DNA of 62,685 nt, counting the filler, from Stramenopiles sp. TOSAG23-2 (Eukaryota), in the NCBI GenBank assembly GCA_900128395.1. It is 4 parts of 4 records of this genome, joined end to end, with 100 filler letters (N's around TTAATTAATTAA, not from the genome) between each part and the next. Parts side by side here need not be neighbours in the genome. Positions count along the whole stretch, not along the records: positions 1 to 29,685 come from LT649387.1; 3 more parts are not named here. One strand, 5' to 3'. A program made the position numbers and the translations under genes. Each line of letters opens with the position of its first letter. The stretch's first letter is position 1. Under the pieces are notes generated by a model. The model worked only from the letters and a program-made list of their open reading frames with translations, ran no database searches and was not told the origin of the DNA. This document shows, piece by piece, positions 471-55,437 of this stretch.

Positions 471-3400
471 TTACATCAAAGTTCCTGCTCTACTATTTTT
501 CAATAGCCAAGTAAATGCTTCAACAAATGCATCGCGCGTCGATTGGTCTTCAAACTCTAAATTAACCTGTCTAGTTACCAATCGCAATGTTACTGTTAAA
601 CGATCATCCGCAAACGAGACATCATTTTCCATCCTTTGGATATCTTTCACAGCAAATCGTTTTGTTTCTTTAGAACCTCTAGCTAAAGCTCTCCACGCAA
701 AGTGCTTGAAGTCACTGGTTACATATATGAATCGCCGTTGGCGTTTACTAGTGGTGGCATGTTTATAGCACAAAAACCCTTTCTTTAATGCTCGTCTCAT
801 TCTTTGGTCTCTTATCCTTTGTTCTTCTTCTATACGATGGCGATTGTTTGGGCTATTTGTGCCATTTGGACTATTACTATCATTGTTTACCATCGATTTA
901 ACAACTGCGCGTGCATGTGCTTCTTGTATATGCTTTCGAATATAGGAAACTGACTTTTCCATAATCATATTTAGACATTGTTGCAAATTATTGTTATACA
1001 TTTGTAAAAACGTTTGCGCTTCGTCTACGGAAAAATCAGGATACATTTCATTGATTCTATTTGCGTTCTTTCTAACGCTTGGCGAATTCATATTTGACTG
1101 AGAGGAGTTAGTCGATGTATTTGACGCATTTGACAAACTACGATTGGTAATAGATTGCCCAGTGATACCACTATTATTATTTTGACCATTGTCAGATGTT
1201 CCATTGCTCATACTTTGTTGCTGCTGTTGCTGTTCTCTTACTGCTTGCATCTGGTTAATCACATTTTTTGGCGACCCACCTTGACTATTCTTGTTGGTAT
1301 TATTATTAATTGTGGGGGATGATTGCGCTTTGCCCTTAAGTCCACGCATACGATGGCCCGGTGACGTAGGTGCCATATGCATAACACTTTTGCTTTTTTG
1401 AATTTGTTCATTACTCAGTCTTTCATTACGTCTTTCAAACAATTTGCCATAATCATATCCTTTGTTTTTGCTGGTGATATTCATATTGTTCATCGAAGAA
1501 TTTAAGGAATTTGAACTTTGATAATTGATTGATTTATTGCTCCTACCAGCTCGTAATAAATTTGGTTGAAATGCAGATGTCCTAGAATCACCAAATCCTC
1601 CCATACTTGCAGGTGATAACAACGCAATGCCACCATCCGTATTATTACTATTATTACTATTATTACTATTGTTATTATTAGGCAGCCCGATGGATGCGGG
1701 TGAGGTTGTTGGCATTACGGCTTGTGGACTTGTTAAAATTTCGACATTCGCATCGTTAACGTGTTGCTCCCCGCCATTGCCCAGTGCCAACGTGTTTGAA
1801 TTCAAAGTTAACAAACGGGATAATAAGCCTCTACCTGTTTTATCTTGATTCTTTCTATTAAAATGTTGCTGATTTGTCGACAATGGAGACTGTAGCAATG
1901 AAAATGCTGCCGCACCTCCTTGCGGCGAAGTATGTTGTGAACTTGGACTAAATCTCGCATTGTTGCTGCCTTGAGGTCGCAAGGTGGTGTTCGGCGATGA
2001 AAAATCCCTCATTGTCGTGCGTCGCCCTCGTGTTTTTTTCTTTTGATGTTGGATAAACTGACCCATCGTACTATTAATCACTTCACCTTCTGACCGTTCG
2101 CTATGCAAATAATCGCAACAATCGTCCCGCTTCCACATCGCTAGGTATTTGGCATTTAAATTCATAGATCCTCTCATCAATCCAGCTGGATATGAACATG
2201 TTATACGGCGTTTTGCTAAAATTTTCGTGATTCTTGAGCGGCTTAACGTGCGGCTCAATTGTTGGAAAAGCGCTTTAACCATATTGGCAGGTCGAAGTGG
2301 CCCATTTTCATCTTCCATTCCATCAAATGCAAATAATGATGTGCGCAGAATAGCATCAAGAAAGTTTCCAAAGTACAAACGATTACGAGCCTTTCGTCGG
2401 CTGGAGTTTTGAAATAACGATGGATTTATCCGTGTCGTTTCCCCATCGTTACTAGACATCGTCAACGCTAATGGCTTTCCAAACGCATCGCGGCCAGTAG
2501 CACTGCTATGCAACAGTTGCCGATGTCGCCGTTGTCTTATAGAATCATCTGGATGCCCACCGATACGAGATAATAATACCTCACTATTGTTATGGCAAGA
2601 TGCCAAGAAAACTTCTCCTATTTGTTGCAAACTTAAGGCTAAATCATTTTTTAGGTCAAAATCTTGTACAAAGGTCATCCAGTCTTTGTAACCAAGGCAT
2701 AAACCGAATTCCCGCAATGCTTTCGGGTCAAGTTCGCTCGCAGGGGAATAAAATCGAAAAATATCATACAACGGTCCTTTGAATAGACGCGCAGTTTCAA
2801 CAACTTCATCCAACAACAGCAATTTTGATTGTTCCTCCCACACATTGACACTCCACCTGCGGCCGTATGGCAACATGTATTCCACCAACAATTCGCAAAA
2901 TGCTGCTTCTAATGCTTCTTGCGATGGGCCGGTCTGCCATTGATTATCACGTGGCGTACATGCGCGGCTTGAAACATTCATTAATGCATTTAAGAATTCA
3001 TCATAATTCATTTTCCCACTTGAACCCGTTTGACCACGAGATTCTGCAGAGTAAATGACACGAAAAGATGCAGCTGGAGTCCGGCTAGCAGTGCCAGAAC
3101 CTAATAATTCAACATCTCGCATTAATTGCAACCAATGATGGCAACGTAAATGTTCTACCTCTTTTGCATCTCCATGGACACAATAGAAGGTAAATATCCT
3201 CCATAATTCTGATTCAATATCCACATCAGATGCTGCCGCATTAATTAAACGTTCCATTGGTGGTTGTTGTGGCTGCTGTTGCGATACACCACTATTATTT
3301 TGCATACTGCTCATGATTTTATTCCCTTGTGTTCCATTGATGTTATTATTATTATTATTACTACTACTATTATTATTTCCAAAAGCTCGGGTCATAGAAT

Positions 3401-3938
3401 GTGCAGTTTTTAAAATAATATGTATACCAGGTCGATCCCGTGCATCTTCAGAAAACATTGCTTCTATTTTTGCATGCTCAGGCCATGCACATCCCTCATC
3501 ATCTTGCAATAAACAATCGTTTGTTGGTAGATTAAAGTACCGTGCCGCATCACGCCTTAATTGTCCAAACGTATATTGTGGGGTTATCCACGAACTTAAG
3601 CTTTCCCCATTAAAATTAACACTAACCTTATTGGACATTCCTGGGGCATTGCCGCCGCGTCTTATCGTTAAATGTGGTAAAAAATCCGTTGCAGCGATTG
3701 ATTTCTCTTGTCTTAAACTTACGGGAACGCCATCTGGTAGTAGAAAATTAAATTTCTTTGGAACATGATCTAGTTCTTCATTAATTTTTTGTCTAACATG
3801 TGCTAATGTTTTAATACTATCATTCACTTCAATGAAACCAAGAAAATCACCATCTTCTAACGCTAATCTTAACACATCCGATGCAGACCATGCTTGCTGT
3901 GGTGGCACGGCAGTATTTTCATTATCCATATTACTCAT
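471..3938 (-). CDS. 1155-aa multidomain protein: possible N-terminal ubiquitin-like folds, EF-hand/p25-alpha-like helical region, Asn/Gln/Ser low-complexity linker, C-terminal PH domain
   Basis: Long uninterrupted ORF. 'ELWRIFTFYC...HWLQLMRD...MNYDEFLNALMNVS' resembles p25-alpha/EF-hand-like modules. 'KKGFLCYKH...RRFIYVTSDFKHFAW...LEFEDQSTRDAFVEAF' is PH-like. Confidence 0.75.
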   Translation of the reverse strand: MSNMDNENTAVPPQQAWSASDVLRLALEDGDFLGFIEVNDSIKTLAHVRQKINEELDHVPKKFNFLLPDGVPVSLRQEKSIAATDFLPHLTIRRGGNAPGMSNKVSVNFNGESLSSWITPQYTFGQLRRDAARYFNLPTNDCLLQDDEGCAWPEHAKIEAMFSEDARDRPGIHIILKTAHSMTRAFGNNNSSSNNNNNNINGTQGNKIMSSMQNNSGVSQQQPQQPPMERLINAAASDVDIESELWRIFTFYCVHGDAKEVEHLRCHHWLQLMRDVELLGSGTASRTPAASFRVIYSAESRGQTGSSGKMNYDEFLNALMNVSSRACTPRDNQWQTGPSQEALEAAFCELLVEYMLPYGRRWSVNVWEEQSKLLLLDEVVETARLFKGPLYDIFRFYSPASELDPKALREFGLCLGYKDWMTFVQDFDLKNDLALSLQQIGEVFLASCHNNSEVLLSRIGGHPDDSIRQRRHRQLLHSSATGRDAFGKPLALTMSSNDGETTRINPSLFQNSSRRKARNRLYFGNFLDAILRTSLFAFDGMEDENGPLRPANMVKALFQQLSRTLSRSRITKILAKRRITCSYPAGLMRGSMNLNAKYLAMWKRDDCCDYLHSERSEGEVINSTMGQFIQHQKKKTRGRRTTMRDFSSPNTTLRPQGSNNARFSPSSQHTSPQGGAAAFSLLQSPLSTNQQHFNRKNQDKTGRGLLSRLLTLNSNTLALGNGGEQHVNDANVEILTSPQAVMPTTSPASIGLPNNNNSNNSNNSNNTDGGIALLSPASMGGFGDSRTSAFQPNLLRAGRSNKSINYQSSNSLNSSMNNMNITSKNKGYDYGKLFERRNERLSNEQIQKSKSVMHMAPTSPGHRMRGLKGKAQSSPTINNNTNKNSQGGSPKNVINQMQAVREQQQQQQSMSNGTSDNGQNNNSGITGQSITNRSLSNASNTSTNSSQSNMNSPSVRKNANRINEMYPDFSVDEAQTFLQMYNNNLQQCLNMIMEKSVSYIRKHIQEAHARAVVKSMVNNDSNSPNGTNSPNNRHRIEEEQRIRDQRMRRALKKGFLCYKHATTSKRQRRFIYVTSDFKHFAWRALARGSKETKRFAVKDIQRMENDVSFADDRLTVTLRLVTRQVNLEFEDQSTRDAFVEAFTWLLKNSRAGTLM

Positions 3939-5111: not shown

Positions 5112-8100
5112 ATGGCGACAAAAGAATCAACTATGGAGCATGAAAAAACAATGGCTACGGGAAAAAGTAATTCTGGTAATTCCTTGTCATATTATAATGT
5201 CCGTGTTTCTCCAGGTGGTGTTCAACCATATCATGCTAATGTAATGTCAGCTGGGCCGAAATTTTTTGCATATTGTTCTACCATAGCAATATATATTTAT
5301 AAATTAAATGGGTTTTCTTTTCAAAGGCTTATTCAAGCACATGATAAAGTTATTACATGTATTAAGTGGTCACCAATATATGGTAATGTTTTAGCAAGTT
5401 GTTCATCTGATTTTATGATTAAAATTTGGAACACGGATAATGGGAAGAAACTAGCAAATTTTCGGCATAATAATGCAATTGTAACATTAGCATGGAACCA
5501 ACACGTCAATTCACTTGTTTTTATCGATAGGAGTGGTAAATGTTTTTTATGGGATATTCCTGCATGGCCGAAATTCGATGGAAATGCATCTGGTAATATC
5601 AATGAAAAACATGGAACTGTGCGTTTGATAACGTATTCAGATGCAACCATGAGTAAATTATCAGCAAATAGTTATGCTGTAGAAATAGCATGGAATTTAG
5701 AACATTCCAATTGTGTTGCTATAGGTCATGCATGCGGGCGTATTGTTGTGAAAAAGATTGGAAAATCAGAAAAAATATTGTCCAATAAATCAAAAAAACG
5801 TGGCAAAGTCCTTTTTTTACAATGGGATACAAGATCAGTATCGTATTTATTAGTTGGTTATCATAATGGTAGTATTTCATTATGGGATGTTGATAGTTGT
5901 ACAGAAGCACAAGTTTATAATACAGGACATAATAATGTAAAAAAAAGGAATAACAAAGAACCTGTTTTAAACGGTTTGCAATGGATACACGGCCAAGTCG
6001 GAAATTTTCTATCAGTAGAATATGCCACAGGTAAATTAAAAGTCTGGAATGTTTCACAGAAAGAAGCATTAGGTTCATATTTTGTTAAAAGCGAGAAAAT
6101 AAAAAAACGTGTGGATACTCGTAATCATTTAAGTCTAGTATGTCCGTTGATGGATAAAGGTTATGATCAGAAATCATTAGTATCATTTACGGATGGTAGT
6201 GTAGGTTTATATAATTTGAAAACACATCGATTGGAGTATCAATCGTTTGAAGGCCATCGAGAAACCATTTTCGGTATGGCTTTTTGCCCAACCAATAAAA
6301 ATTTTTTAGCTACAAGTTCCTTCGATGGTATGGTGAAGATGTGGCATTTTCCAACAATGACGCTTCGTAATAGCTTGGAGTTCCAAAGCAGCGTCTATAA
6401 CATCTCCTTTTCACCATGTGGCAAATTGTTAGTATGCGTAACTGAAAATGGCATGATTGCTATTTTCAATGCATTATCTAAAGGCGAAAGGGGTCAAGCA
6501 ACAAGCAATAATAACAAGAATAACATCAGTAACGGTTCAAAAGATGATGGTATTATAGCCTCATTTTGTACCGATTGCCGGATGTATAATTGCGATTGGA
6601 ATCAAATCGATGACGCGTTAATTGTAGCAACTGGGGAAACAAACTATGCCTATGTTATTGATGATCGTGGCGGATTATTTGCAAAATTTCGACACCCAGC
6701 AGAATGTTTTGGCTGTCAATGGAAAATAGGCGATGCGAGATTATTTGTAACTGGTTGCCACGATGGTATAGTTAGGATATTCGACTCTGGACTTTTGGAT
6801 CACACATGTCTCATCGAATTGGATGGACATTCGGATCGTGTTTTTAATGTTGCGTTTTCACCTTTAAATACAAATTTCATAGCAAGTTGTTCAAATGACA
6901 AAACTATTCGAGTGTGGAAAATACAGCGTATTAACCACAATGAAGAAACTAGGGCTAATCTTACTGGTTCCTGCAGGTGTGTGTTAAATGGGCATAGTGA
7001 AAATGTCCGTGCATTGAAATGGTGCACGGAACTGCCCTTCATTTTATATAGTGGCTCGTGGGATGCTACCATTCGTATATGGAATACTGATACAAACGAA
7101 TGTTTGTGTGTAATAAAGGAGCATCAAGCTGATGTTTACCAAATTGCATCTCACCCAGGTAGACCATTTCGTTTTATTTCATGCAGCCGTGATACTACGC
7201 TCCGTGTTTGGGGAATGAATGGACATACCAAGTATAGAATTATTAGCAATTTTTTCAGTGCAAATTTTTCCTATGCAAAGAGAGATTACATGGGGATAGT
7301 CTTGAAAAGCTCGTTAAAGCGCCCATATTTGTGTAGTAATTTTTACAAAAAAAACTTTTATTACTTTCCATTTACTAACGATGATAATCTTGGTCAACAA
7401 AATGACCGCCAAGATTATATGTATAAACCAAATATTAATTATTGGATTCAAATTTTTGAGTACATTGAATGTGCAGAAGGAATTGATGAATTTTTAAATA
7501 TTTTAATTGTACAATATAATAATATCATGAACAAAAATAGTTACAGTTCTAATAATTCCACTTCAAAAGGCAATGTTCTAAAAATCATTAATTGTAGCAA
7601 AAATGATCTAGATGATGATGGACAACCATTGTTCCCATCGCGAGTTTTATATCCGAAAAATGCTGTAAAAAATCGTTTACAAGAAGCAAAAGAACTGATA
7701 ACGAGTGCTACCATGAGGCGCTTTTCGGGAATAGGTAATTTAAAATCAAGTGATAAATTAAAAATTGCATATGAGAAATATATACGTCTTGGTGAAATTA
7801 AAAAAGCATGTGAGGCTTTAATTAAAATTGGTAAATGGGAAAAGGCTATTTCCCTGTCACCAGGTGTATCTATTGATTATTGGAAAAAGTTAAGTGCACG
7901 ATATGCACAACACTTGGATGAGAATGAAGATAAATGTGTTTTAGATTACCACGTTGCAGTGGGTGATTTAAAAAGTGCACAGGAATATTTAATTTCAGAA
8001 GGCTCTTGGGACGATGCAGTTATACTATCAACAGCATGGAACCAAAAAAAGCAAGAAAACAATAATAGTAGAGAAGATCATCAGCGCAATCGAGTAGTTG

Positions 8101-8531
8101 AATCTGGTAGTGAAGATGATGAACACAATGACAGCAACAATACTGAGGCAATAAAAAGATCAAATGAAATTGGTGAATTGATTTATCCTGTTGCACAATT
8201 TTATGAAGCTAGAAATGAACCATTATTAGCAGCAGCAACTTATATTGGAGTTGGTCAGTTTGAAAAAGCAATTCAAATATTATTAGAATTTAATGAACTA
8301 TTTGCAGCTTTCATCGTTGCATTAACATTTCGATGCCATCTATTTCAAAATCAATTTTCAAAAGGCATGTATGTGAAATGCATAGAATTATTTGCATCAT
8401 GTTTTGAAAAATGTGGCAATAAAATTAAATTTAGCAATTTAATAATAGAAGAGCATTTGTCAAAATATGGCATTGATACGAGTAGCAACAGTAATAGTAA
8501 TAATAATAACAGCAGGGAAACCAAAAAATGA
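5112..8531 (+). CDS. WDR17: WD repeat-containing protein 17 homolog
   Basis: Many GH..WD repeats. N-terminal 'PGGVQPY...FAYCSTIAIYIY' and C-terminal 'GEIKKACEALIKIGKWEKAISLSPGVSIDYWKKL' match recalled WDR17 signature segments. Confidence 0.88.
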   Translation: MATKESTMEHEKTMATGKSNSGNSLSYYNVRVSPGGVQPYHANVMSAGPKFFAYCSTIAIYIYKLNGFSFQRLIQAHDKVITCIKWSPIYGNVLASCSSDFMIKIWNTDNGKKLANFRHNNAIVTLAWNQHVNSLVFIDRSGKCFLWDIPAWPKFDGNASGNINEKHGTVRLITYSDATMSKLSANSYAVEIAWNLEHSNCVAIGHACGRIVVKKIGKSEKILSNKSKKRGKVLFLQWDTRSVSYLLVGYHNGSISLWDVDSCTEAQVYNTGHNNVKKRNNKEPVLNGLQWIHGQVGNFLSVEYATGKLKVWNVSQKEALGSYFVKSEKIKKRVDTRNHLSLVCPLMDKGYDQKSLVSFTDGSVGLYNLKTHRLEYQSFEGHRETIFGMAFCPTNKNFLATSSFDGMVKMWHFPTMTLRNSLEFQSSVYNISFSPCGKLLVCVTENGMIAIFNALSKGERGQATSNNNKNNISNGSKDDGIIASFCTDCRMYNCDWNQIDDALIVATGETNYAYVIDDRGGLFAKFRHPAECFGCQWKIGDARLFVTGCHDGIVRIFDSGLLDHTCLIELDGHSDRVFNVAFSPLNTNFIASCSNDKTIRVWKIQRINHNEETRANLTGSCRCVLNGHSENVRALKWCTELPFILYSGSWDATIRIWNTDTNECLCVIKEHQADVYQIASHPGRPFRFISCSRDTTLRVWGMNGHTKYRIISNFFSANFSYAKRDYMGIVLKSSLKRPYLCSNFYKKNFYYFPFTNDDNLGQQNDRQDYMYKPNINYWIQIFEYIECAEGIDEFLNILIVQYNNIMNKNSYSSNNSTSKGNVLKIINCSKNDLDDDGQPLFPSRVLYPKNAVKNRLQEAKELITSATMRRFSGIGNLKSSDKLKIAYEKYIRLGEIKKACEALIKIGKWEKAISLSPGVSIDYWKKLSARYAQHLDENEDKCVLDYHVAVGDLKSAQEYLISEGSWDDAVILSTAWNQKKQENNNSREDHQRNRVVESGSEDDEHNDSNNTEAIKRSNEIGELIYPVAQFYEARNEPLLAAATYIGVGQFEKAIQILLEFNELFAAFIVALTFRCHLFQNQFSKGMYVKCIELFASCFEKCGNKIKFSNLIIEEHLSKYGIDTSSNSNSNNNNSRETKK

Positions 8532-8904
8532 TAATGACCATCGTCATATACGAATTATTAAATATAGGATACACATGATGTGTGCCTGTTATTTTTAAAA
8601 CTTTTTTTTTATTTTAAAATAAATTAATACGGTAGATATATATATAATATGATAAAAATATGTTCTCTTTTTATTTTTTTTAAAATATACGAAGTTCGTA
8701 TTAAAAAAATTTACACACACAATTTTTGATTTCAGCCTCCCCCCCCCTCTCTCTTTGGCTCTTGGTTGTTCATACGTACGGCGTGTACAAATATTGTATG
8801 TCTTTACGCTTCGTATTTAATACGAACGCGCGATATTCTTCTTCTTCTTCTCCTTCACACATACATCACATAAATAAATATTTTCATAAAATATCGTTAT
8901 ATGC

Positions 8905-23493: not shown

Positions 23494-24096
23494 CAAAACT
23501 ATGCACATAAAAACATAATTTTACACTCTCTGAGGAACAAAGAACAAAGAGAAAAATACTCGCTCGGAAAAATTTATATTATTAAATTCAGTGTGTGGGG
23601 AATTTAAAAAAAAATAAAAATTTAATTTTAACTGTATTCTATACATACACACACGTCGTATATTTTTTCTAACTCCGGGTCACTCTCTCTCTCCCTCTTT
23701 TAAATAATTATACAATGTAATGTACGAGTTCATATTTATACCAAATCACAAAGTCCTTTTTATCTTCTTTTTATATCCGATTTTTTTTAGATTTAGATTC
23801 ATACATCATCAGGCACATGGTATTTTCTATTCCCTTAAAAGCTTAAAAGTATTTCTCCTCCTTCTATTTTATAATAATATAGTGACCGTATCCAAATATA
23901 ATATATTTACTACTACTATTAAATATATCCAGATATATATAATATAAATAATATATATTTTAAATATTAAATATTGATGCATCATGCGAAGATGTTCTCG
24001 ATTCAACAAACAAAATTGAATTTTAAAACAATGTATATCGGATTTACCAAGAGTATATATTCACACCACTCATAATATATATAACAAGCAAGAACA

Positions 24097-26664
24097 ATGA
24101 CATCAACATTATTCCATGGGAATGTAGTGAATGCCAATAAACATTATGACACGACTACAAAAACAAACGGTGAGGATAATAACAATGACAACCCAATTTA
24201 TTTATTGAAAAATGTATACATTGGTGTAGATGAATATGGTCGAATTAATTATTTTTCTCAAAGTAAACGACCGTCTAGTGATATTTTAAAATATGAAAAG
24301 GAAATTATGTTAGATCAATATCAAATTATTATGCCCGGGTTTGTTGATACCCATGTTCATGCAGCTCAAATACAATATTCTGGTACAGGAACAGATTTGC
24401 CATTAATGAAGTGGTTAACAAAATATGCTTTTCCGTCAGAGAAAAGATTAACAAATAATTTAGCCTTGTCAAGAACAATATATACAAATCTTGTCAATAA
24501 ACTTTTGAATAATGGTACGACTACATGTTTATACTTTGGTGTCTTAGGTGTTGAAAGTTCAAAAATTTTAGCAGATGTTTGCAATGAAAGAAAACAACGT
24601 GCTTTTGTTGGGAAAGTAAATATGGATAGATTATCACCAGATGACTATATTGAAACTACAGAGGACTCTTTATTAAATACCGAGAAATTTATAAAGTATG
24701 TGAAACATAATATTAATTCAGATTTAGTGAATCCTGTCATAACGCCTCGTTTCGTCCCTTGTTGTACTAAAACATTATTATCTGGTCTTGGAAAGATTGC
24801 TAAAAAATATGATGTTCATATACAATCACATGCTGTAGAAAGTTTAGATTGTTTACAAACTGTTGAAATGTTACATCCATCCGAAAATGAAGTAGATATA
24901 TTAAATGAAAATGGGTTGCTTACAGAAAAATCTGTCATGGCTCATTGCGTACATATAAATGATGATCAAGCAAAAATATTTTTAAGTACAGGTACAAGTA
25001 TATCACATTGTCCTTTGTCTAATTTTTATTTTGCTGGTGGATGTTTACGAACATGCTCATTGTTGAATAAAGGTGTTGGGGTAGGACTTGGTACAGATAT
25101 TGCTGGTGGGTATGCAGCCCAAATGTTAAATAGTATAAGACATTGTGTTACAACACACTTAGCCATTGCAGCTGCAGATGTAAACGCAGGTAATAAAAAA
25201 TCAGATGGAATTGCACCAGGATGTGGAGAAGTGGTACGCCGTAATGATTTTACATATAAACATGCAATATGGTTGGCTACTGTAGGTGGAGCGAAGGCAT
25301 TGAAAATAAATGATACAGTTGGCCATTTTGACATTGGCATGTCTTTTGATGCATTATTAATTAATTTGAAAGATTTTGCTGATGTTATCCCATCAATGCC
25401 AACTTCGGATAATTCTATGCATCAAGAAATGGATGAAGATGTATTATCGACATTATTTGAGAAATTCATACATTTAGGCGATGATCGTCATTTTCAAAAA
25501 GTATGGGTTGCTGGCAATTTAGTCGTAAATAAAGTTGCTGCAACAAGCCCAAAAGAAGTAGAAGTAGTAACAACAACAATATCCAATAAAAATGATGAGG
25601 TATCATCAGCATTAAGCAACAAGAATGTAATAATTGGTATTAGTAATAATTCAAATGAAAAATTATCTGTTATTGATCTAGGAACCGTAGAAAATGGAAC
25701 TGGGCCAATTGGTACAGCATCTGAAATTGCAATTGCTAAAGTTTTGAATAATGCATGTCGAAATGATGGATTTTTCTATCTAAAAAACCATGGAATATCA
25801 TCTGAATTAATAGAAAAAACATTTGAAATGAGCAAAGTTTTCTTTACAAAATTAACGCTAGACGAAAAGAAAATGGTTCTTGTCACTAATTCTCGAGGAT
25901 ATACACCGATGGCAGAGGAAACGTTAGACCCTAAAAACCAAACACGTGGAGATACAAAAGAAGGATATTATATTGGCAATGTGGAAAAAACAGACAATAG
26001 TAAAGATACCGATTGGGTTAATATATGGCCAGATGAAGATCGATTATCGGTATTGAAAGGATGGAAAAATACAATGAAAGAATATTTTAATCAAATACAT
26101 ATTTTAGGGATGAGAATGCTTCGTATTTTAGCTTTATCGCTTGATTTGGATGCTGATTTTTTTGATGAAAAATTCACGAACCCAATGGAAGCTTTACGAT
26201 TGCTTCATTATAGCGAAGAAAAGAGTAGTACGGAGGAAGGTGTGTTAGGATGTGGAGCACATTCTGATTATGGAATGTTAACGTTTTTAATAACAGATCA
26301 TGTGCCAGGGCTAGAAATTTTAAGAAAAGGCAAATTATCTAATGCTACTACTGGAATTACCACGGAGAAAGAAGAATGGATGCCAGTTCCACCAGTAAAA
26401 GACACATTCATTGTCAATTTAGGTGATATGTTACAGCGATGGACTAACGATACATATAGTAGCACTGTCCATCGTGTTGTTAATCGCCAAGGATTGGAGA
26501 GATATAGTATTCCATTTTTCTTTGAACCGAACTTTGATACTGTAGTGGAAGTATTAGAAAGCTATTGTTCAGAAAATAACCCTGCAAAATATCCTCCAAC
26601 TACTTCTGGTGAACATTTATTGAGTAAATATGCTGAAACACATGCAATGTTTGAAGATGATTGA
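24097..26664 (+). CDS. guaD: Guanine deaminase fused to a C-terminal IPNS-like 2-oxoglutarate/Fe(II) dioxygenase
   Basis: N-terminal half: PGFVDTHVHAAQ, WLTKYAFPSE, NGTTT, TPRFVP, HIQSHAVE, MAHC, HCPLSN, GLGTDIAGG, GDDRH. C-terminal half: VIDL, GFFYLKNHGI, RGY, KEGY, LRLLHY, AHSDYGMLT, VNLGDMLQRWTN, STVHRV, RYSIPFF. Confidence 0.92.
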   Translation: MTSTLFHGNVVNANKHYDTTTKTNGEDNNNDNPIYLLKNVYIGVDEYGRINYFSQSKRPSSDILKYEKEIMLDQYQIIMPGFVDTHVHAAQIQYSGTGTDLPLMKWLTKYAFPSEKRLTNNLALSRTIYTNLVNKLLNNGTTTCLYFGVLGVESSKILADVCNERKQRAFVGKVNMDRLSPDDYIETTEDSLLNTEKFIKYVKHNINSDLVNPVITPRFVPCCTKTLLSGLGKIAKKYDVHIQSHAVESLDCLQTVEMLHPSENEVDILNENGLLTEKSVMAHCVHINDDQAKIFLSTGTSISHCPLSNFYFAGGCLRTCSLLNKGVGVGLGTDIAGGYAAQMLNSIRHCVTTHLAIAAADVNAGNKKSDGIAPGCGEVVRRNDFTYKHAIWLATVGGAKALKINDTVGHFDIGMSFDALLINLKDFADVIPSMPTSDNSMHQEMDEDVLSTLFEKFIHLGDDRHFQKVWVAGNLVVNKVAATSPKEVEVVTTTISNKNDEVSSALSNKNVIIGISNNSNEKLSVIDLGTVENGTGPIGTASEIAIAKVLNNACRNDGFFYLKNHGISSELIEKTFEMSKVFFTKLTLDEKKMVLVTNSRGYTPMAEETLDPKNQTRGDTKEGYYIGNVEKTDNSKDTDWVNIWPDEDRLSVLKGWKNTMKEYFNQIHILGMRMLRILALSLDLDADFFDEKFTNPMEALRLLHYSEEKSSTEEGVLGCGAHSDYGMLTFLITDHVPGLEILRKGKLSNATTGITTEKEEWMPVPPVKDTFIVNLGDMLQRWTNDTYSSTVHRVVNRQGLERYSIPFFFEPNFDTVVEVLESYCSENNPAKYPPTTSGEHLLSKYAETHAMFEDD

Positions 26665-30515: not shown

Positions 30516-33374
30516 ATGTTGTCGTTAAGCCCCAAGAAAATTGTACAAATAGTAGTTCTAGCAACAATATTAATATATACTTGTTTTGGTAAAGAGACAA
30601 GTAAATTAATTAAAAATAAACTGAATAAAGTTATTAGTAGAAGCAAAATAAACACAGCGTTGAATAAAGAGAGATGCAATAATCACGCTACAAGTGCCTT
30701 TTTCGGTAAATTTTATTCGCAAACAATGGGGAATGCATATAATATGGACGATACCGTATTGGCTGATGGCAGTTTGGAGTCGCAAGTTAATTGTAATACA
30801 TCGACAAGGTCGAAAAAAGAGTTCGAAAGAAGAGATAAGGCAAGGTGTGACTATTTAAAACTTCTAGACAGAACACACGATGTGGAGGGCAATCACCGAC
30901 GCTGCATTAAGCTGGACGGAAATTCTGACAGCGAAACAACAGGTAATTTTCCAGATTGGTGTTTAGGAACGAATCCGGACAATTGTCATGGACCAAACCA
31001 ACAACTGTTTAACAAACGAGCCGAGGCAAGTGAAGGTAGTAGCAACAACATGAGAGTGACACTAGCTGGAAAATCATCAGAAAAGAAGGATATGATGAAA
31101 ACGATGAAGAGAAAAATAAACGAAGCAGCGCTAAAAGATAAAGAAAAAAAAAAGACGAATAAGGTGAATAGTAACGAAAACATTTTCATAGAATCTGGGA
31201 AGGACACAGCAGATAGCTTGCTGAAGGACGATGATCCGTTACTAGTAATGGAAACGTTGTTGTATAAGGAGTATAACAAACCAAAATCAAAAGTCGAAAA
31301 GGATTGTCGGGACGCAGGTATACGTGTCATTAAAACATTAAGAGAGAAACGCAAATGCATTGTTTTATCAAATATGTCATTTTCAAGAGGCAAGTTGGTT
31401 TATTATACAGACTACATACGCGAACTAAAATATCGGACTAAAGATAACAGAAGAAAACCAACTTGGTATGGAAAAGTACAAAAATTGCAAAAACTTTTAA
31501 AGGATTTAAAACCATTATTTGTAAGTGTTTTTAAAAAAAGAGGTGTTTGTGAAGAAGCAGTAGAAAAGATCTTGCAGTTTCTTTTAGATTTGGTTGTGGT
31601 ATTTGCTCAATACGATGATTTACATAAGCTCTGGAAACATGTTGGCGAAGACAAGAATTTTAAGGATATCCAACATTTCGATAATAGTAGTAAGATAGAA
31701 TTTATAGAAAAATCAATTCTTTTCTTTCAATATTTAGAATCTAAAGCCCCTTTTGTTGGTGATGAAAACAAATTTTACTTACTAAAGAAACGGATGCTGA
31801 ACGGCGAGGTTCCAAAACCAGAATCGTTTATAGACGGGAAAGTAACAGAATGGGAAAAAATGAACGATGGAGAAAAAGAAACGTTAAAACATCTAAAAGA
31901 CGACTACCGTTTCTTCAACCAGGAAAATTTAACAACAGCAACATGCATTAGTTGTGATTTAATAAGATCATTATTCCTCCCAAAATTTGATTTTGTACCT
32001 CAAGACATTAATCGGTTTACGCTTCTTAATATCCTGCTGAAGATATTTGATGCAAAAAAAAAAATGTCTCTAACTGAAGATTCGCAAAGTCAAAGTGCAA
32101 TCGCAAAATCATATCAACAGCTTAAATTTTTATTTGATCGAGTAAAATTTATTTTCATGACCATCAAACATTTGCAACAAAATATGGATGGGAAGAAATA
32201 TTACGACAAAGTGTCCGAGAAATATGCTAACATAACGGGCGGGCCAGCATATAACATAGAATATTTGGAAGACCATTTATTAGGGGATTCTCTCACAACT
32301 GAATCATGTAAATCCAAAACATGTTACAGATCATGTGAATTTACACATTATAAAACAAAATTTAAACTAGCTTTTGCCCAAGATAAGATAACCTTTAAAG
32401 ACCATCCATATGCAAATTGTGTAAAATTTGAAACTGAAACAAATTATCGAAATGCAAAAAGTCAGTGTCCAATCGGAACAATCCTACCAGTCCCAAATAC
32501 ATTTGAATATAGAATGTATCAAGAGAATTTCAAGACCACTTGGTTATGGTCACAGGAGAAATTAGGTTTTAAAAATACTGGGCACGTTGCAAAGCATTAT
32601 AAAAGTGATTTGGCGACACAAATATTTGGTTTTAAATGTGACAAACCATGCAATAATTGTTATGGCAACAACAATGGTTATCCCTTTCCAATCGCGAAAG
32701 GATATACGCTAGATTTCATACCAAAAACAAGCATATATGGAGTGAAAAAAAAAACAGGAGAAGATATACCATGGATTCGTAAAGAAAATTGGGATCCTGA
32801 GACTGCAATGTATTATCCACGATGCGAATGTGAACATGGGTATAATGGACCGCACGAATGTAACGGCAAGAAACACAAAAAAGGTGATATAACAATGGTG
32901 TGTGAAATGGTAAAAACTGAAGGTGGCATTTTAGATGGTTGTTTTGAAGGCCATTTTGTAATCAGTGCAAACAAAAAAGATGAAACTAAATGTTTTGTTC
33001 TTCAAATGAACTTAGAAGATCCATGTGTTGATTATTCTGAAGGCATAAACTTCTTCGAAAAAGACAAATTCAAGCTACATAAATTTAGTAACAAGCAATG
33101 CCTTGTGGATAATCTGGGTTATATTGGAAGACAAACATTGTATAAAGCTAGTCGCTCAGAACCACAATTACGCCTATTAGACAATACACATTGTCCGGGT
33201 CACGATAAACCGTTCGGGTTTACAGGCGGCAAAAGTATAATTAATGGCACAACGTATTGCAAAAAATCAAAAGAAAATAAAAATCCATTTATTAGAGCTG
33301 AGAAGAGGAATTGTAAAGATCCGATGAGGGGGAGGAGGAGGAGATTGTTGCAAAGAAGTCAAAGCAGTTGTTAA
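30516..33374 (+). CDS. Secreted or signal-anchored cysteine-rich protein ending in RRRRLLQRSQSSC
   Basis: Hydrophobic N-terminus (IVQIVVLATILIYTCFG), Cys-rich N- and C-terminal regions, EGF-like 'CECEHGYNGPHEC', and a Lys-rich helical middle. Confidence 0.8.
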   Translation: MLSLSPKKIVQIVVLATILIYTCFGKETSKLIKNKLNKVISRSKINTALNKERCNNHATSAFFGKFYSQTMGNAYNMDDTVLADGSLESQVNCNTSTRSKKEFERRDKARCDYLKLLDRTHDVEGNHRRCIKLDGNSDSETTGNFPDWCLGTNPDNCHGPNQQLFNKRAEASEGSSNNMRVTLAGKSSEKKDMMKTMKRKINEAALKDKEKKKTNKVNSNENIFIESGKDTADSLLKDDDPLLVMETLLYKEYNKPKSKVEKDCRDAGIRVIKTLREKRKCIVLSNMSFSRGKLVYYTDYIRELKYRTKDNRRKPTWYGKVQKLQKLLKDLKPLFVSVFKKRGVCEEAVEKILQFLLDLVVVFAQYDDLHKLWKHVGEDKNFKDIQHFDNSSKIEFIEKSILFFQYLESKAPFVGDENKFYLLKKRMLNGEVPKPESFIDGKVTEWEKMNDGEKETLKHLKDDYRFFNQENLTTATCISCDLIRSLFLPKFDFVPQDINRFTLLNILLKIFDAKKKMSLTEDSQSQSAIAKSYQQLKFLFDRVKFIFMTIKHLQQNMDGKKYYDKVSEKYANITGGPAYNIEYLEDHLLGDSLTTESCKSKTCYRSCEFTHYKTKFKLAFAQDKITFKDHPYANCVKFETETNYRNAKSQCPIGTILPVPNTFEYRMYQENFKTTWLWSQEKLGFKNTGHVAKHYKSDLATQIFGFKCDKPCNNCYGNNNGYPFPIAKGYTLDFIPKTSIYGVKKKTGEDIPWIRKENWDPETAMYYPRCECEHGYNGPHECNGKKHKKGDITMVCEMVKTEGGILDGCFEGHFVISANKKDETKCFVLQMNLEDPCVDYSEGINFFEKDKFKLHKFSNKQCLVDNLGYIGRQTLYKASRSEPQLRLLDNTHCPGHDKPFGFTGGKSIINGTTYCKKSKENKNPFIRAEKRNCKDPMRGRRRRLLQRSQSSC

Positions 33375-43674: not shown

Positions 43675-46053
43675 ATGGCAACTGTAACTGATGTGAACAA
43701 TAATTCCACTAGTAATATAGATAACGATGTAGTTCCAACAAACAGTTTAGGCTTGGACACAATTGGGATGGATGGTTCGAGTGGGCATTCATGCTGTAAA
43801 AAGAATGCGTATGCTTCATTTTTAATGGCTACTATTACCCCGTTGGTTCTGGTGATACAGTTGCCACAAATGTTTGTTGCATTCTTTCGTTGTGATGCAA
43901 CAGGGCTGTATACACTTGTATTAATTATGAGCATTGTTCCAATTTTTTTTTCGCCTGTTATAGCATGGGTGGTAGATGCAGACATATGTGGATCTTGCTT
44001 TGGTAAGATTGGAATGCCTACGTACGATACGTATGATTTGGATGAAAATGGTAAAGTGAAACGGGATGCTGATGGTAAAATGATTCTAAAGAAAATGGGA
44101 TATGGAAAAAGAGCATCAGTATTTGCATTTTGCATGGCATTTTGTGCTGTAATATCATTTTTCATCTATTCTCCGCCATCTTGGGCAATACTAGCTACTG
44201 TAAAAGATGGCACTCGGTTGCTTAATGAAGCATTGGGTTATAATAATATTACTCATTATAAATATGGAGAAAGTGGAGAATGGCAAAAATTTGAACCAAC
44301 AATGGATATAGTCAATGGATTTGATTGTTCACAAAAATTATACTTGAATACTACAGGTATAGGGAAAGTTTCTGCCCCCTGGACGACTGAAATTCTCCCT
44401 GATGGTACAGAAATAGTTTCATTCACAGCGGTACGCTTATCTATTGACCAGACAACAGAAATACCTGCATATGGTAATGATATTTGCGAAAGTATGATTT
44501 CCTCTTCCAGCGTTTGTTGGCCTGGGCCAACAGGATCTACGAAACCTGGTGATGGGGGAGCACGTGTTTGTTCTTATATGGACAACAATAGTATTTTGAC
44601 ACATACAACAATTATATCAATTTTAATGTATGTGTTTGTCTCGACTGCAAATTTAACTGCAACATCAGCAGTAATGGAACTTTATCCATGGAATCAAGAG
44701 CGAATGCAAGTATTTGGTATGGTTATGGTATGGGTGTTATTAGCTGTAGCCTTTTATGTAGTTGTAAACACACTTGCAATAGGAGAAAGTGAATTTACCA
44801 CAAAGCCAGATGGTAATCAATCGTTTCGAAGTGTTGCTGCTATTGTTTGTGGTATTCTTGTTGTTTTGTTTTCAATTGCACCATTATGGCCATTGCGTGA
44901 GGCAAGGCAACAGCAAAAAAATTCAAAGAAAGTTGATAATTTCTTTGCAGAATGCAAAAATGCATTTTTAGGTGATGTAACTGGTGATAAAGAAAATAAA
45001 TCGGCTGGTGCTATGCGAATTATGACACTGTTAGGTTTGGTTGGTGAAATTCGTTATCAATTAAGAGTAATCGGACAACCTTTTGTGTTTATATATATAT
45101 TTAAACTGACTCCAGAATGGATTGCCTCAGCTGGTATTATTGGAGGCATCGGTATTTTAATAAGATTGTTCTTTGCAGGAGTATGGTCTTGGGTGTTTGG
45201 TACAAAATCAAAAAAAGGCAGGGAACATTCACGAGATCCTCGTTTGATATCAATGGTTTGTTTGACAATTTTAAGTTTTTTGCAATTTATTATTATTGGT
45301 GCTATGTGGCAACCTCGATCAAATGAACATACATCTGGGTGGCCAGAAGTTATGGCCTTACTAGTTTGGGGAGTGGTGGATCAAACTTTAATTTCAGTAT
45401 ATTCATTTTGGTTAACAGCTGCAGGCGCATGGATAGTTGATGAAGATTGTCAGTATCAAATAACACGTGGTGGAAAACGCAGGGAAGGTTTTTACAAAGC
45501 AATTCAACAAATGGTAAATGGGGTAGCGACATTTATTGCAGTTGCATGGATTAACTCTTTCCTCATTGGTGATAATGCTCCTTGTAATACTAATTATCAA
45601 TACAACAATCAAAAGCCGGAGTGTGGTCAATCGTTTTTCATATTATTTTTAGTATTTCATCCAATATTGCGATTAATTCAAGTTTTGTTGATGTATTTTT
45701 TCCCTATCACTGGTGAGCGTTTAAAAGCACTTTATAGACGCCAAGCTGTAACCCATGTTGTTGTAGGTGGTTCTAGTGCAGAAAAAGAATTAATTGAATT
45801 GAAGAAAATGAAATCACAATTTCAAAAAGAAACTGCCGCATTAACTACACAAGCCCCGGCTACTTTTAAAGTAGTTTTACCTGATGGTGCAGCACCTGGA
45901 ATGCAATTACAATATCCTTTATCAAATGGAACAAATGTAACTGTAGTTGTGCCAGAAGGGAAAGGACCTGGAGATGAACTATTAGTCCCAATTCCCCCAG
46001 TAACGACAACGACGATAAACACAGGTGATAATAAAGGCACTGGTACTATATAA
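43675..46053 (+). CDS. MFS transporter of the GPH (glycoside-pentoside-hexuronide) type with a large Cys-containing loop
   Basis: About 12 hydrophobic segments. PVIAWVVD and WIVDED...GKRREGFY motifs. C-terminal VVLPDGAAPG/VVVPEGKGPG beta-repeat. Confidence 0.78.
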   Translation: MATVTDVNNNSTSNIDNDVVPTNSLGLDTIGMDGSSGHSCCKKNAYASFLMATITPLVLVIQLPQMFVAFFRCDATGLYTLVLIMSIVPIFFSPVIAWVVDADICGSCFGKIGMPTYDTYDLDENGKVKRDADGKMILKKMGYGKRASVFAFCMAFCAVISFFIYSPPSWAILATVKDGTRLLNEALGYNNITHYKYGESGEWQKFEPTMDIVNGFDCSQKLYLNTTGIGKVSAPWTTEILPDGTEIVSFTAVRLSIDQTTEIPAYGNDICESMISSSSVCWPGPTGSTKPGDGGARVCSYMDNNSILTHTTIISILMYVFVSTANLTATSAVMELYPWNQERMQVFGMVMVWVLLAVAFYVVVNTLAIGESEFTTKPDGNQSFRSVAAIVCGILVVLFSIAPLWPLREARQQQKNSKKVDNFFAECKNAFLGDVTGDKENKSAGAMRIMTLLGLVGEIRYQLRVIGQPFVFIYIFKLTPEWIASAGIIGGIGILIRLFFAGVWSWVFGTKSKKGREHSRDPRLISMVCLTILSFLQFIIIGAMWQPRSNEHTSGWPEVMALLVWGVVDQTLISVYSFWLTAAGAWIVDEDCQYQITRGGKRREGFYKAIQQMVNGVATFIAVAWINSFLIGDNAPCNTNYQYNNQKPECGQSFFILFLVFHPILRLIQVLLMYFFPITGERLKALYRRQAVTHVVVGGSSAEKELIELKKMKSQFQKETAALTTQAPATFKVVLPDGAAPGMQLQYPLSNGTNVTVVVPEGKGPGDELLVPIPPVTTTTINTGDNKGTGTI

Positions 46054-53703: not shown

Positions 53704-55437
53704 TCAAATTTGTGTCCTTTCACGTCTCTCATGTTCCCATATTGCAAGTAACTTATATAGTTCAATAGCAACTTCCTCTGTCAAAAGTTCGAATCTTTGT
53801 CTTTCATCATTTAATTGCTTTAGACACTCTTCTTTAGCAACGTTTAATTCTTTCTTCATTTTGAATTTTTCTGCTGCCCATGTCATCCACGCTGCTCTAC
53901 CATTTGTACTGTTGAACAATGGTTGAAAATCATTATTTGTATCTATACCTTCGCCATTGCTTCCTATATTATCACCACCATTCACACTATTATTATTATT
54001 ATTATAATTACGTGTTTTTGCTGCGTTTCCCAACTTATCGCTGAAAATCATCTCTCTATATTTATCTCTTACATTTGCATGTTCCAATTCTTCTTGTCGA
54101 AATTTTACTTTGTACCTATCTCTATCTTTTTCTAATTGCACTACAACCTCTTCCATTTGTGATAAATCATTCGAAGCGGTAATTGCAATTTGTAACAATT
54201 TATTTCGTGGCATTTTATGCAGTCTATCTCTCCACACCGAATTTGCACGTGAAAAGCGCATATCACGAAGTGCTTTGCGCAAAAATATTGGATCCTCTAA
54301 TTTTGGTTCTTTCACTATTTCAGATGGATCATTCCCAACTAAAAATTCAATTTTACGTACATTTTTCCAATGTGCCGAATCTACAGCCCATTTTGCATCT
54401 CTTAACATGTTTTTCAAACGAGCTAATGATGGTACTTTATTGATAGATGAAGGATCATTTGTATTATCACCACTAGTTGTAATATTATCATCATCCCCTC
54501 CGTTACTTAATAATTTTTGACCATAGGCATTTCTTCGTGTTATGCTATTATAATTTCTATTATTATTGGCAAACTGGGCACGTCTACGCTCAATTGCCCA
54601 TTCTGCGACTGCCATGTGAGTTATACCGTGGGTTGATTTAGCATTACTTTCTAAACGTATTCCTTTGCGCCTTTCCTCGGATAATTTTGATCTTAACAAT
54701 TGTATTTCATCTTGTAATCGCCCAACTTTGCTGCTCAACCTTGAATCGGACACTGAATCAAGTGCAACTCCCATTTGTTCCTTTAATTTTTGTACTTCTA
54801 GACGATACGCATCTGCTTGTTCTTGCGTTTCTTCTAATTTCAAACGCAGACTATTGGCAACATGTTTTTCTTGCCCCAGTGTTGATTTCAATGCCACTAA
54901 CCGTTGAAAGACATGTTCTATGTCCTCTTCTGAATCTAGTTTTTCTTGGAGTCTTGCCAATTTTGCTGTCGCTTTATCAGCTTTAATACGTTGTTCATTT
55001 GTTTGATCCGTCAAAGTTTTTAAATACCTTTTCATGTCATCACCAGATGCATCTATGACCGTTCTAAATTGCCTATTTTCCACTTCTAATTTCTGCAACT
55101 TGTCGTATTGGTATTGATTGGTGCTGAGAGGGTTAAATGAAGAACTTTCACTTTGATCACCACTATAAACGGTTTGCATCATTTGTATTTCAGCTTGTGC
55201 TCTATTTAAGCGTCGACGTAAAGATTGTGTAAGGAACTTTGCAAGCTCTTCCGTCAATGTATTTACAATGTCGTCTCCATGTATATGATTTACAACGGCA
55301 AATTGCTTCGCTATGTCATGTGCCTCATCTTGCAATGGCCTTACCGACACAGGGAGTTGAATTATACCAGCTATTGTTTTATATCTAAAATTTAATGTCT
55401 CTAACTCAGCATTACTACTTTTATTAAAGGCAGCCAT
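53704..55437 (-). CDS. Coiled-coil protein of unknown function
   Basis: 577-aa ORF with long heptad-like E/K/L/Q-rich stretches. Confidence 0.75.
   Translation of the reverse strand: MAAFNKSSNAELETLNFRYKTIAGIIQLPVSVRPLQDEAHDIAKQFAVVNHIHGDDIVNTLTEELAKFLTQSLRRRLNRAQAEIQMMQTVYSGDQSESSSFNPLSTNQYQYDKLQKLEVENRQFRTVIDASGDDMKRYLKTLTDQTNEQRIKADKATAKLARLQEKLDSEEDIEHVFQRLVALKSTLGQEKHVANSLRLKLEETQEQADAYRLEVQKLKEQMGVALDSVSDSRLSSKVGRLQDEIQLLRSKLSEERRKGIRLESNAKSTHGITHMAVAEWAIERRRAQFANNNRNYNSITRRNAYGQKLLSNGGDDDNITTSGDNTNDPSSINKVPSLARLKNMLRDAKWAVDSAHWKNVRKIEFLVGNDPSEIVKEPKLEDPIFLRKALRDMRFSRANSVWRDRLHKMPRNKLLQIAITASNDLSQMEEVVVQLEKDRDRYKVKFRQEELEHANVRDKYREMIFSDKLGNAAKTRNYNNNNNSVNGGDNIGSNGEGIDTNNDFQPLFNSTNGRAAWMTWAAEKFKMKKELNVAKEECLKQLNDERQRFELLTEEVAIELYKLLAIWEHERRERTQI

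Follow-up and report, generated by a model that had tools for sequence, protein, structure and literature searches.

A guanine deaminase joined to an isopenicillin-N-synthase-like dioxygenase in a marine stramenopile, and the possible role of the dioxygenase in purine catabolism

Guanine deaminase (GDA), which converts guanine and water to xanthine and ammonia, is represented among solved structures by the human (2uz9, 4aql), yeast (6oh9) and E. coli (GuaD, 6ohb) proteins. For the formation of urate from xanthine without molybdenum (Mo), the working model proposed here is XanA, the alpha-ketoglutarate-dependent xanthine hydroxylase of fungi, an Fe(II)/2-oxoglutarate (2OG) oxygenase that belongs to the TauD/TfdA class. 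The isopenicillin N synthase (IPNS)-like or DOXC class of Fe(II)/2OG oxygenases also includes an enzyme acting on a free nucleobase, namely, thymine 7-hydroxylase (T7H) from N. crassa (5c3p-5c3s), which oxidises the methyl group of a pyrimidine. Bacterial members of this class have been tied to purines through an RNA element. Yu & Breaker (2020; PMC7373994) describe the NMT1 motif as an OFF riboswitch for xanthine (dissociation constant, KD, of about 3.7 µM) and urate (about 25 µM), and the commonest genes downstream of it code for pcbC-like (isopenicillin-N-synthase-like) dioxygenases, NMT1-like proteins and tauA; the motif is also associated with 8-hydroxyguanine/guanine-deaminase-like amidohydrolases and with tadA. 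The functions of the pcbC-like dioxygenases are presented there as not established and purine substrates are predicted for them, so that the action of IPNS-like dioxygenases on purines, anticipated in 2020 for bacterial relatives, is already in print as a prediction. In this work, we analysed a 62,685-nucleotide stretch (hereafter the window, made of four genome parts and filler) from Stramenopiles sp. TOSAG23-2 (GCA_900128395.1), an AT-rich, intron-poor marine protist. It carries on the + strand an open reading frame (ORF) of 855 residues with an ATG start (24097..26664, including the stop codon), which codes for a GDA, a linker and a 2OG/Fe(II) dioxygenase of the IPNS-like class.

This real and unusual architecture, found in a single protist lineage, joins a predicted textbook enzyme to a member of a large family without established function. 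On balance, we favour a bifunctional protein in which the dioxygenase would act on a purine within the catabolic route of the GDA; it appears fairly likely that the substrate of the dioxygenase is a purine or another nucleobase. Three lines point towards purines, namely, the eukaryotic fusion itself, operon-like bacterial clusters of related dioxygenase genes with genes for purine deaminases, xanthine dehydrogenase (XDH) and the ureide pathway, and the riboswitch control reported by Yu & Breaker. Together, they yield a short and concrete list of substrates for assay.

The N-terminal half (residues 33-477; 24193..25527, + strand), of amidohydrolase fold, has every hallmark of a GDA as judged from its sequence. 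The alignment with human GDA (2uz9) spans precisely these residues with an E value of 3e-91, that of yeast GDA (6oh9) being 5.6e-78, and the Amidohydro_1 profile is matched from position 1 to 345 of 345 (residues 77-476), as expected of a full-length (beta/alpha)8 domain. The NCBIfam guanine deaminase model TIGR02967, curated for prokaryotes, gives 355.9 bits, just below its equivalog cut-off of 375.4, but remains by far the top model, the next one scoring 263.5 bits and that of 8-oxoguanine deaminase (8-oxoGD) 117.3 bits. The HxHxxQ motif (H86, H88 and Q91; 24352..24369, + strand) comprises metal ligands together with the Gln that guanine deaminases conserve, and the other active-site residues are R218-F219, H245, E248, H283 and D334 (24748..25098, + strand), located by alignment with human GDA. 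All of them are invariant in the 21 sequences of our deaminase alignment (A2), except F219, which is nearly so. The roles given to the residues of the HxHxxQ motif are presumed ones, and Q91 and the Arg-Phe pair of the PRF motif (R218-F219) presumably participate in guanine binding. With the human, yeast and E. coli enzymes, the window protein shares the metal ligands, the HxHxxQ and PRF motifs and the catalytic HxxE; the difference lies in the C-terminal dioxygenase, which is found in none of the other 82 whole-protein matches.

The C-terminal half (residues 521-855; 25657..26661, + strand) is predicted to be an intact Fe(II)/2OG oxygenase of the IPNS-like/DOXC class. Pfam analysis of the 855-residue ORF gives, after Amidohydro_1 (77-476, 1.4e-43), the two domains typical of this class, DIOX_N (525-647, 5.3e-23) and 2OG-FeII_Oxy (701-811, 4.9e-23), and an AF2 (AlphaFold2) model of the domain, with a mean predicted local distance difference test (pLDDT) value of 89.8, displays the double-stranded beta-helix fold. 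The iron-binding facial triad is complete, with H722-x-D724 (26260..26268, + strand; invariant columns H218 and D220 of the 30-sequence dioxygenase alignment A1) and H792, followed by R802-x-S804 (both within 26470..26508, + strand; invariant columns H288, R298 and S300). From the general biochemistry of the family, we take H792 to be the third iron ligand and R802/S804 to form the site for the C5-carboxylate of 2OG. All 46 columns that are invariant in A1 are retained in the window domain. A segment specific to the family (residues 600-627, RGYTP...EETLDP.NQ..GDTKEGYYIG; 25894..25977, + strand), in which R96, G97, D107, G114, K117, E118 and G119 of A1 are invariant in the 30 sequences, is a candidate substrate-binding lid.

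In Foldseek searches, 9ovh, an ancestral ethylene-forming enzyme (EFE; PMC12329707), 5c3p (T7H) and 6jyv (PaIPNS) were retrieved with a probability of 1.00, the top two being 9ovh and 5c3p with template modelling (TM) scores of 0.71-0.75. The best match by sequence in the PDB is also 9ovh (2e-42), T7H being matched with an E value of 1.7e-35. A protein atlas search returned only generic 'Fe2OG dioxygenase' clusters. The sequence-only reading of this DNA had placed the domain in the IPNS-like class with a link to T7H as a nucleobase oxygenase, and T7H is indeed among its closest solved folds (TM score normalised to the query, TMq, 0.75; 30-32% identity). However, T7H oxidises a methyl group of a pyrimidine and is no ortholog of the window domain, and the likeness is one of overall similarity. 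With regard to XanA, no TauD/TfdA domain was matched by Pfam in the window ORF at E ≤ 0.01, the window domain consisting instead of DIOX_N and 2OG-FeII_Oxy; if both enzymes had the same function, it would therefore be of convergent origin.

The fusion is real at the level of DNA and ORF, and the stretch 24097-26664 very probably encodes a genuine fused protein. The sequence-only reading had described a single ORF of 855 residues on this strand, with a complete amidohydrolase domain (HxH, HxxE, H and D motifs intact), a linker, and a complete dioxygenase (H-x-D...H triad and RxS), and it proved right on every point that was checked. The linker (about residues 478-520; 25528..25656, + strand) is stop-free, has no in-frame ATG and is predicted to be disordered, with pLDDT values below 50 for its C-terminal part (residues 505-520). 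The in-frame Met codons on either side are 445 and 578, and the latter already lies within DIOX_N. In standalone dioxygenase orthologs, e.g., P0309, the start Met aligns at about residue 519, where the linker ends. A linker kept open by chance is unlikely but not negligible, since 1235 of 15516 windows of 46 codons (8%) in the non-ORF sequence of the window are stop-free, and the frame must match as well. A 99%-identical protein of 855 residues (P0002) represents a 36-member cluster at 90% identity with entries from ENA, NCBI, EukProt and JGI; among the 15 members listed, eight have the full 855-residue length, on contigs of 2.7-3.2 kb, and seven are fragments.

A metagenome contig (L081) represents a second haplotype. 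Across the 2568-nt coding sequence (CDS), it differs by nine substitutions, seven synonymous and two non-synonymous, with no indel, and the linker shows one synonymous change and again no indel; in the 294 nt directly 5' of the CDS, 33 mismatches and 20 gap openings were obtained by subtraction from the blastn segment. These mostly synonymous changes without indels, next to a diverged flank, indicate that the linker evolves as coding sequence. It is highly improbable that the fusion is an artefact, whether a chimera of the assembly or a pair of genes mistaken for a single one. One JGI gene call does split a 2587-nt contig into products of 636 and 228 residues, but the 636-residue product already extends past the linker and into the dioxygenase, which means that the junction is crossed in frame on this contig as well. 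Moreover, the window, L081 and the eight listed full-length cluster members (from ENA, NCBI and EukProt) all contain the same ORF, and an intact dioxygenase without a start codon of its own is hard to reconcile with two genes. The recurrence of the protein and the second haplotype rule out a chimera, one of the possibilities under which the sequence-only reading would have been abandoned. With respect to transcription, 24 sequencing runs listed hold parts of the stretch, 17 of them RNA, from 13 studies with many polyA metatranscriptomes; the best share of the words of the stretch in any listed run is 0.42, and no run holds half of them. As a side observation, the non-coding region upstream (23803-24096, compared with L081 2278-2571) is strongly diverged next to a CDS that is 99.65% identical, which suggests either a very rapid intergenic turnover in this organism or a recombinant promoter region.

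Evidence bearing on the substrate comes mainly from bacteria. A scan with the family alignment, over one genome per prokaryotic species, yielded 597 relatives, of which the best 80 (32-40% identity) were kept; ORFs were called in the fetched flanks, clustered, and checked by tblastn. At least one of three purine-type neighbours is present in 54 of the 80 loci. A Bmp/PnrA-type ABC binding protein is encoded in 49, as a rule in the same orientation and 50-250 bp upstream, an adenosine/adenine deaminase in 36, usually 80-180 bp downstream, and a guanine deaminase/8-oxoGD-like amidohydrolase also in 36. At 75% identity, the loci collapse into 40 clusters, 17 of which have a purine context. The NCBIfam scan took in 11 of the 36 amidohydrolases: six pass the 8-oxoGD equivalog (620-704 bits, cut-off 532), two pass guanine deaminase models, and three pass no model. 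The six loci belong to three Pseudomonas, one Oceanospirillaceae, Hoeflea and a Hyphomicrobiales metagenome-assembled genome (MAG); in Hoeflea (L003) and the Hyphomicrobiales MAG (L049), the dioxygenase gene has the 8-oxoGD gene 253 bp and 168 bp upstream of it, respectively, in the same orientation. The gene order is 8-oxoGD, Bmp, dioxygenase and adenosine deaminase in the gammaproteobacterial group, and 8-oxoGD, dioxygenase, Bmp, permeases and formamidase in the alphaproteobacterial one.

A wider and compact purine cluster is that of Agarivorans sp. (L066, 4949-16680), with genes for a xanthine permease, Bmp, the dioxygenase, XdhA, XdhB, XdhC, OHCU decarboxylase, guanine deaminase and PuuD, xdhA being directly downstream of the dioxygenase gene. 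In Oceanobacter (L048), genes for ureidoglycolate lyase, the allantoinase PuuE and allantoicase are close to that of the dioxygenase. The alphaproteobacterial clusters run on into a formamidase gene (L003 12228-13448 and L049 12427-14147; 572-575 bits), followed in L049 by a biuret amidohydrolase (BiuH) equivalog pass at 415.8 bits, which hints at a ring-opening route releasing formamide. A different context is seen in seven Rhodobacterales/Rhizobiaceae-type loci (L061, L071, L074, L075, L079, L072 and L036), where the dioxygenase gene (about 8001-8860 in each) is immediately followed by a creatininase-family gene. In five of them a cytosine deaminase (NF005759, 620 bits) is encoded upstream at a distance of about 2.7 kb; L075 and L079 additionally have genes for an ABC permease or an NMT1-like binding protein. 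These loci suggest another N-heterocyclic substrate, such as creatinine or a pyrimidine. In the P. aeruginosa group, the enzyme of the purine cluster (L046 5520-6482, P. paraeruginosa) was considered as a candidate for the solved PaIPNS (6JYV) and rejected, the score being only 221.7 bits. The group thus has at least two dioxygenase paralogs, and what was published as negative for 6JYV does not extend to the purine-cluster enzyme. No mention of PA0147 was found among the papers listed by the literature search.

A second fusion of comparable layout was found in a bacterial protein of 490 residues (P0083, a cluster of one), which consists of an N-terminal cytosine deaminase of the yeast type (E 4e-39) and a C-terminal dioxygenase matching T7H over its full length (1.5e-31). 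Both P0083 and the window protein thus have an amino-base deaminase followed by an IPNS-like dioxygenase. However, the P0083 deaminase has the cytidine deaminase (CDA) fold of yeast Fcy1 and that of the window protein the amidohydrolase fold; the dioxygenases are 31% identical, and P0083 sits on a long branch. As for riboswitch control, the Rfam model RF03054 of the xanthine riboswitch is present in two of the five genomes searched, where both NMT1-DIOX_N operons and single DIOX_N genes lie downstream of it. The downstream dioxygenases (DIOX_N and 2OG-FeII_Oxy) share 31-32% identity with the window domain over 316-347 residues (tblastn). At L086 (1953-4370), a divergent RF03054 pair is present, one copy before genes for an NMT1-like protein and a DIOX_N dioxygenase, the other before a second DIOX_N dioxygenase gene; at L088 (8974-11701), RF03054 precedes a DIOX_N dioxygenase gene, adjoined by a divergent pair coding for an NMT1-like protein and a DIOX_N dioxygenase. 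There are accordingly at least three dioxygenase paralogs in the Xenophilus genome and at least two in the Pseudacidovorax MAG, each of the two having a further paralog at L057 or L062. The riboswitch-associated pcbC-like dioxygenases of Yu & Breaker and the window domain share the Pfam architecture, associations with deaminase-like proteins, and a predicted action on purines. The former are bacterial, standalone and regulated by RNA, whereas the window gene is eukaryotic and its link to a deaminase is covalent. The eukaryotic GDA fusion is a new and independent support for the purine prediction.

If the dioxygenase acts on a purine, its most likely activity would be that of a Mo-independent purine ring hydroxylase, an assignment that we make tentatively, as it falls somewhat short of probable. 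In the simplest scheme for the fusion, the deaminase domain would convert guanine to xanthine, and the dioxygenase domain would hydroxylate xanthine at C8 to give urate, a deaminase acting at C2 and a hydroxylase acting at C8 being exactly what the passage from guanine to urate needs. This particular reaction of xanthine to urate is, taken alone, rather unlikely. In one variant, the dioxygenase would convert hypoxanthine to xanthine, so that both domains converge on xanthine; in another, it would oxidise guanine to 8-oxoguanine, subsequently deaminated by 8-oxoGD. Both variants fit the bacterial clusters as well as the sequential scheme does. The hypoxanthine reaction is equally fitting because of the tight pairing of the dioxygenase with adenine/adenosine deaminase and of the preference of the riboswitch for xanthine over urate. 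The GDA-type partner in the protist and the 8-oxoGD-type partner in bacteria would be compatible with two identical steps whose sequence is reversed. By extension, the whole family, from stramenopiles, green algae, land plants and Chromera to the proteobacterial relatives, might form a second, convergent class of Mo-independent purine ring hydroxylases, which, with a C2 deaminase (GDA in the protist, 8-oxoGD in bacteria), would lead from guanine to urate by two enzymes without a Mo cofactor; we regard this generalisation as unlikely, though worth stating.

The main purine-related rival is oxidative N-demethylation ahead of the deaminase, in which the dioxygenase would hydroxylate the methyl group of methylated purines (N2-, 1- or 7-methylguanine, N6-methyladenine), release formaldehyde and pass the base on to the deaminase. 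Such a rule would cover by itself the varied deaminase partners, namely, GDA in the window protein, 8-oxoGD-type and adenosine/adenine deaminases in the clusters, and cytosine deaminase in P0083 and in five Rhodobacterales-type loci. T7H, a near structural neighbour, does hydroxylate the methyl group of a base, and a 2OG dioxygenase demethylating methylguanidine (MgdH) is known (PMC12508155). The KD values of the riboswitch for xanthine (3.7 µM) and urate (25 µM) also fit enzymes acting upstream of xanthine (PMC7373994). The origin of methylated bases in digested prey RNA, suggested by the sequence-only reading, is a conjecture. However, N-demethylation leaves unexplained why the frequent partner is an 8-oxoGD equivalog rather than a plain guanine deaminase, and no gene for formaldehyde handling was noticed among the recurrent neighbour families, which makes this chemistry improbable in our view. 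Outside purines, the dioxygenase could act on a guanidino compound such as homoarginine or arginine, like EFE or the plant dioxygenases that depend on 2-oxoglutarate (2-ODD) of clade C23, the fusion then reflecting general nitrogen scavenging or chance. In favour of it, these enzymes belong to the same DOXC/IPNS-like class, the ancestral EFE is the top PDB match by sequence, and 2-ODD-C23 members are homoarginine-6-hydroxylases (PMC11018352). C23 is reported to be lost in C. reinhardtii and single-copy in rice, whereas Chlamydomonas reinhardtii has a member 51% identical to the window dioxygenase, and the wild-rice homologs are multi-copy tandem gene models. The window clade is therefore probably not C23, the clade of At3g50210/Din11, being set apart from it only indirectly, by the traits reported for C23. 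As no arginine or lysine pathway gene is recurrent beside the bacterial homologs, we give a guanidino substrate the same low probability as N-demethylation.

The purine reading has to be weighed against a series of observations, beginning with the distribution of the fusion. The two domain types occur together in one of 83 whole-protein matches, which is the protein's own 90% cluster, and, among 53 long proteins with the dioxygenase domain, the amidohydrolase fusion is found in that cluster again; a Pfam scan of 16 long homologs revealed no second amidohydrolase fusion, and Tpt1 or luciferase-like partners once each. The search for this architecture in other eukaryotes, as proposed by the sequence-only reading, thus recovered the cluster itself and no other lineage in the 83 and 53 matches. 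The closest orthologs of both halves are standalone proteins (59-63% identity for the dioxygenase, 51-57%, depending on the aligner, for the deaminase), and the fusion may be a young, lineage-specific event, because it is confined to a single cluster and its closest orthologs are standalone. A quick IQ-TREE tree of 71 rows (LG+G4) unites the 30 eukaryotic rows in a single clade (SH-aLRT 100), whose sister group consists of nine bacterial rows (SH-aLRT 86, not starred), e.g., from Acidocella, Rhodospirillaceae and Competibacteraceae. None of the 44 ORFs scanned in the neighbourhoods of this sister group is clearly purine-catabolic, the genes found being unrelated housekeeping genes. The rows with a purine context belong to two other clades, and, in a 74-row tree, the three riboswitch-linked rows pair with L063 or with the long branch of P0083 and not with the eukaryotic clade. 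RF03054 was detected by the Rfam scan in none of the 35 loci scanned out of the 80.

Among the bacterial loci themselves, 19 of 80 have none of the marker genes and seven have the cytosine deaminase/creatininase context instead. Moreover, one Pseudomonas cluster accounts for 31 of the 54 positive loci, so that the neighbour counts are not independent. Nor does the dioxygenase fill an obvious gap in bacteria, since XdhB scores above its cut-off in nine of ten genomes with a purine-context homolog and the urate oxidase PuuD is present in all five genomes examined; the PF01014 uricase is in none of these five. On the same PuuD result, we rejected the candidate function of the bacterial enzyme as the missing urate oxidase of the cluster. 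The idea that the dioxygenase stands in for the Mo-dependent XDH, put forward in the sequence-only reading, consequently found no support in bacteria. The coexistence with XDH takes away the most straightforward reason to assume such a replacement; it is no refutation, as Aspergillus keeps both XanA and a Mo enzyme (PMC5746545). In fact, every functional step assigned to the dioxygenase is an extrapolation from sequence and context. Plants are not known to have a guanine deaminase, and their xdh mutants accumulate xanthine, which argues that the plant orthologs are not efficient xanthine hydroxylases. Substrates shift quickly in this superfamily, as illustrated by arginine, homoarginine and thymine.

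Several of these points would agree with a fusion without catalytic meaning, in which a lost stop codon would have joined two neighbouring genes recently, leaving the dioxygenase with the unrelated function of its standalone orthologs, whatever that is, i.e., the presence of the fusion in one 90% cluster only, the standalone orthologs at 59-63% identity, and the bacterial sister clade without purine context. Against this stand the purifying selection on the linker and on both domains between the two haplotypes, the independent associations with deaminases in three bacterial clades and in P0083, and the riboswitch evidence linking the wider family to xanthine and urate, which lead us to consider a meaningless fusion quite improbable. 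The sequence-only reading had argued from the fusion that the second domain acts on a purine, and had suggested looking at the gene neighbourhoods of the closest bacterial homologs. The purine inference finds partial support, being strengthened by the neighbourhoods (54 of 80 loci), P0083 and the riboswitch control, and weakened by the sister clade, whose context is not that of purines. On balance, we retain a bifunctional protein with a dioxygenase that would act on a purine.

Should ring hydroxylation be confirmed, purine catabolism would possess, next to the Mo enzyme, a widespread branch that depends on oxygen and 2OG. What 8-oxoGD does physiologically would have to be reconsidered, as this orphan deaminase would gain a metabolic, and not merely repair-related, source of substrate, and a function could be assigned to a conserved orphan 2-ODD clade found in algae and plants. 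Otherwise, the fusion would represent a cautionary case for Rosetta-stone inference.

The dioxygenase family itself is standalone in most eukaryotes and in many Proteobacteria. A search with this domain only gave 3275 matches at E ≤ 0.001 and, in a representative library, 785 at E ≤ 1e-30. At 45-55% identity, members are found in brown algae, diatoms, MAST-4, Chromera, green algae, Klebsormidium, Marchantia and Selaginella, and the standalone orthologs probably have the same activity as the fused domain, whatever this activity is. The motifs of the family presumably fit the uncharacterised At1g35190/At3g46490/At4g16770 group better than C23; in the literature search, these plant relatives were found by gene ID only in list mentions. 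No published account of this GDA-dioxygenase fusion was found among the papers listed in that search, supplements being outside it. Two or three tandem dioxygenase copies per gene model were noticed in Cladosiphon okamuranus (P0003/P0113, 586-590 residues) and in Oryza/Leersia (P0114-P0123, 506-931 residues), which are either neighbouring genes merged by annotation or true internal duplications.

With regard to the rest of the window, its GC content is 0.29-0.40, and it holds 32 long intron-free ORFs of at least 150 residues. Among 25 other ORFs of the window, no purine gene was recognised, an absence that carries no information in a eukaryote. The ORFs 471-3938 (-), 30516-33374 (+), 43675-46053 (+) and 53704-55437 (-), of 1155, 952, 792 and 577 residues, respectively, gave no match to Pfam at E ≤ 1e-4. 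Other genes of the window code for WD40 proteins, a tubulin-tyrosine ligase, a bestrophin, an asparagine synthase and an O-fucosyltransferase.

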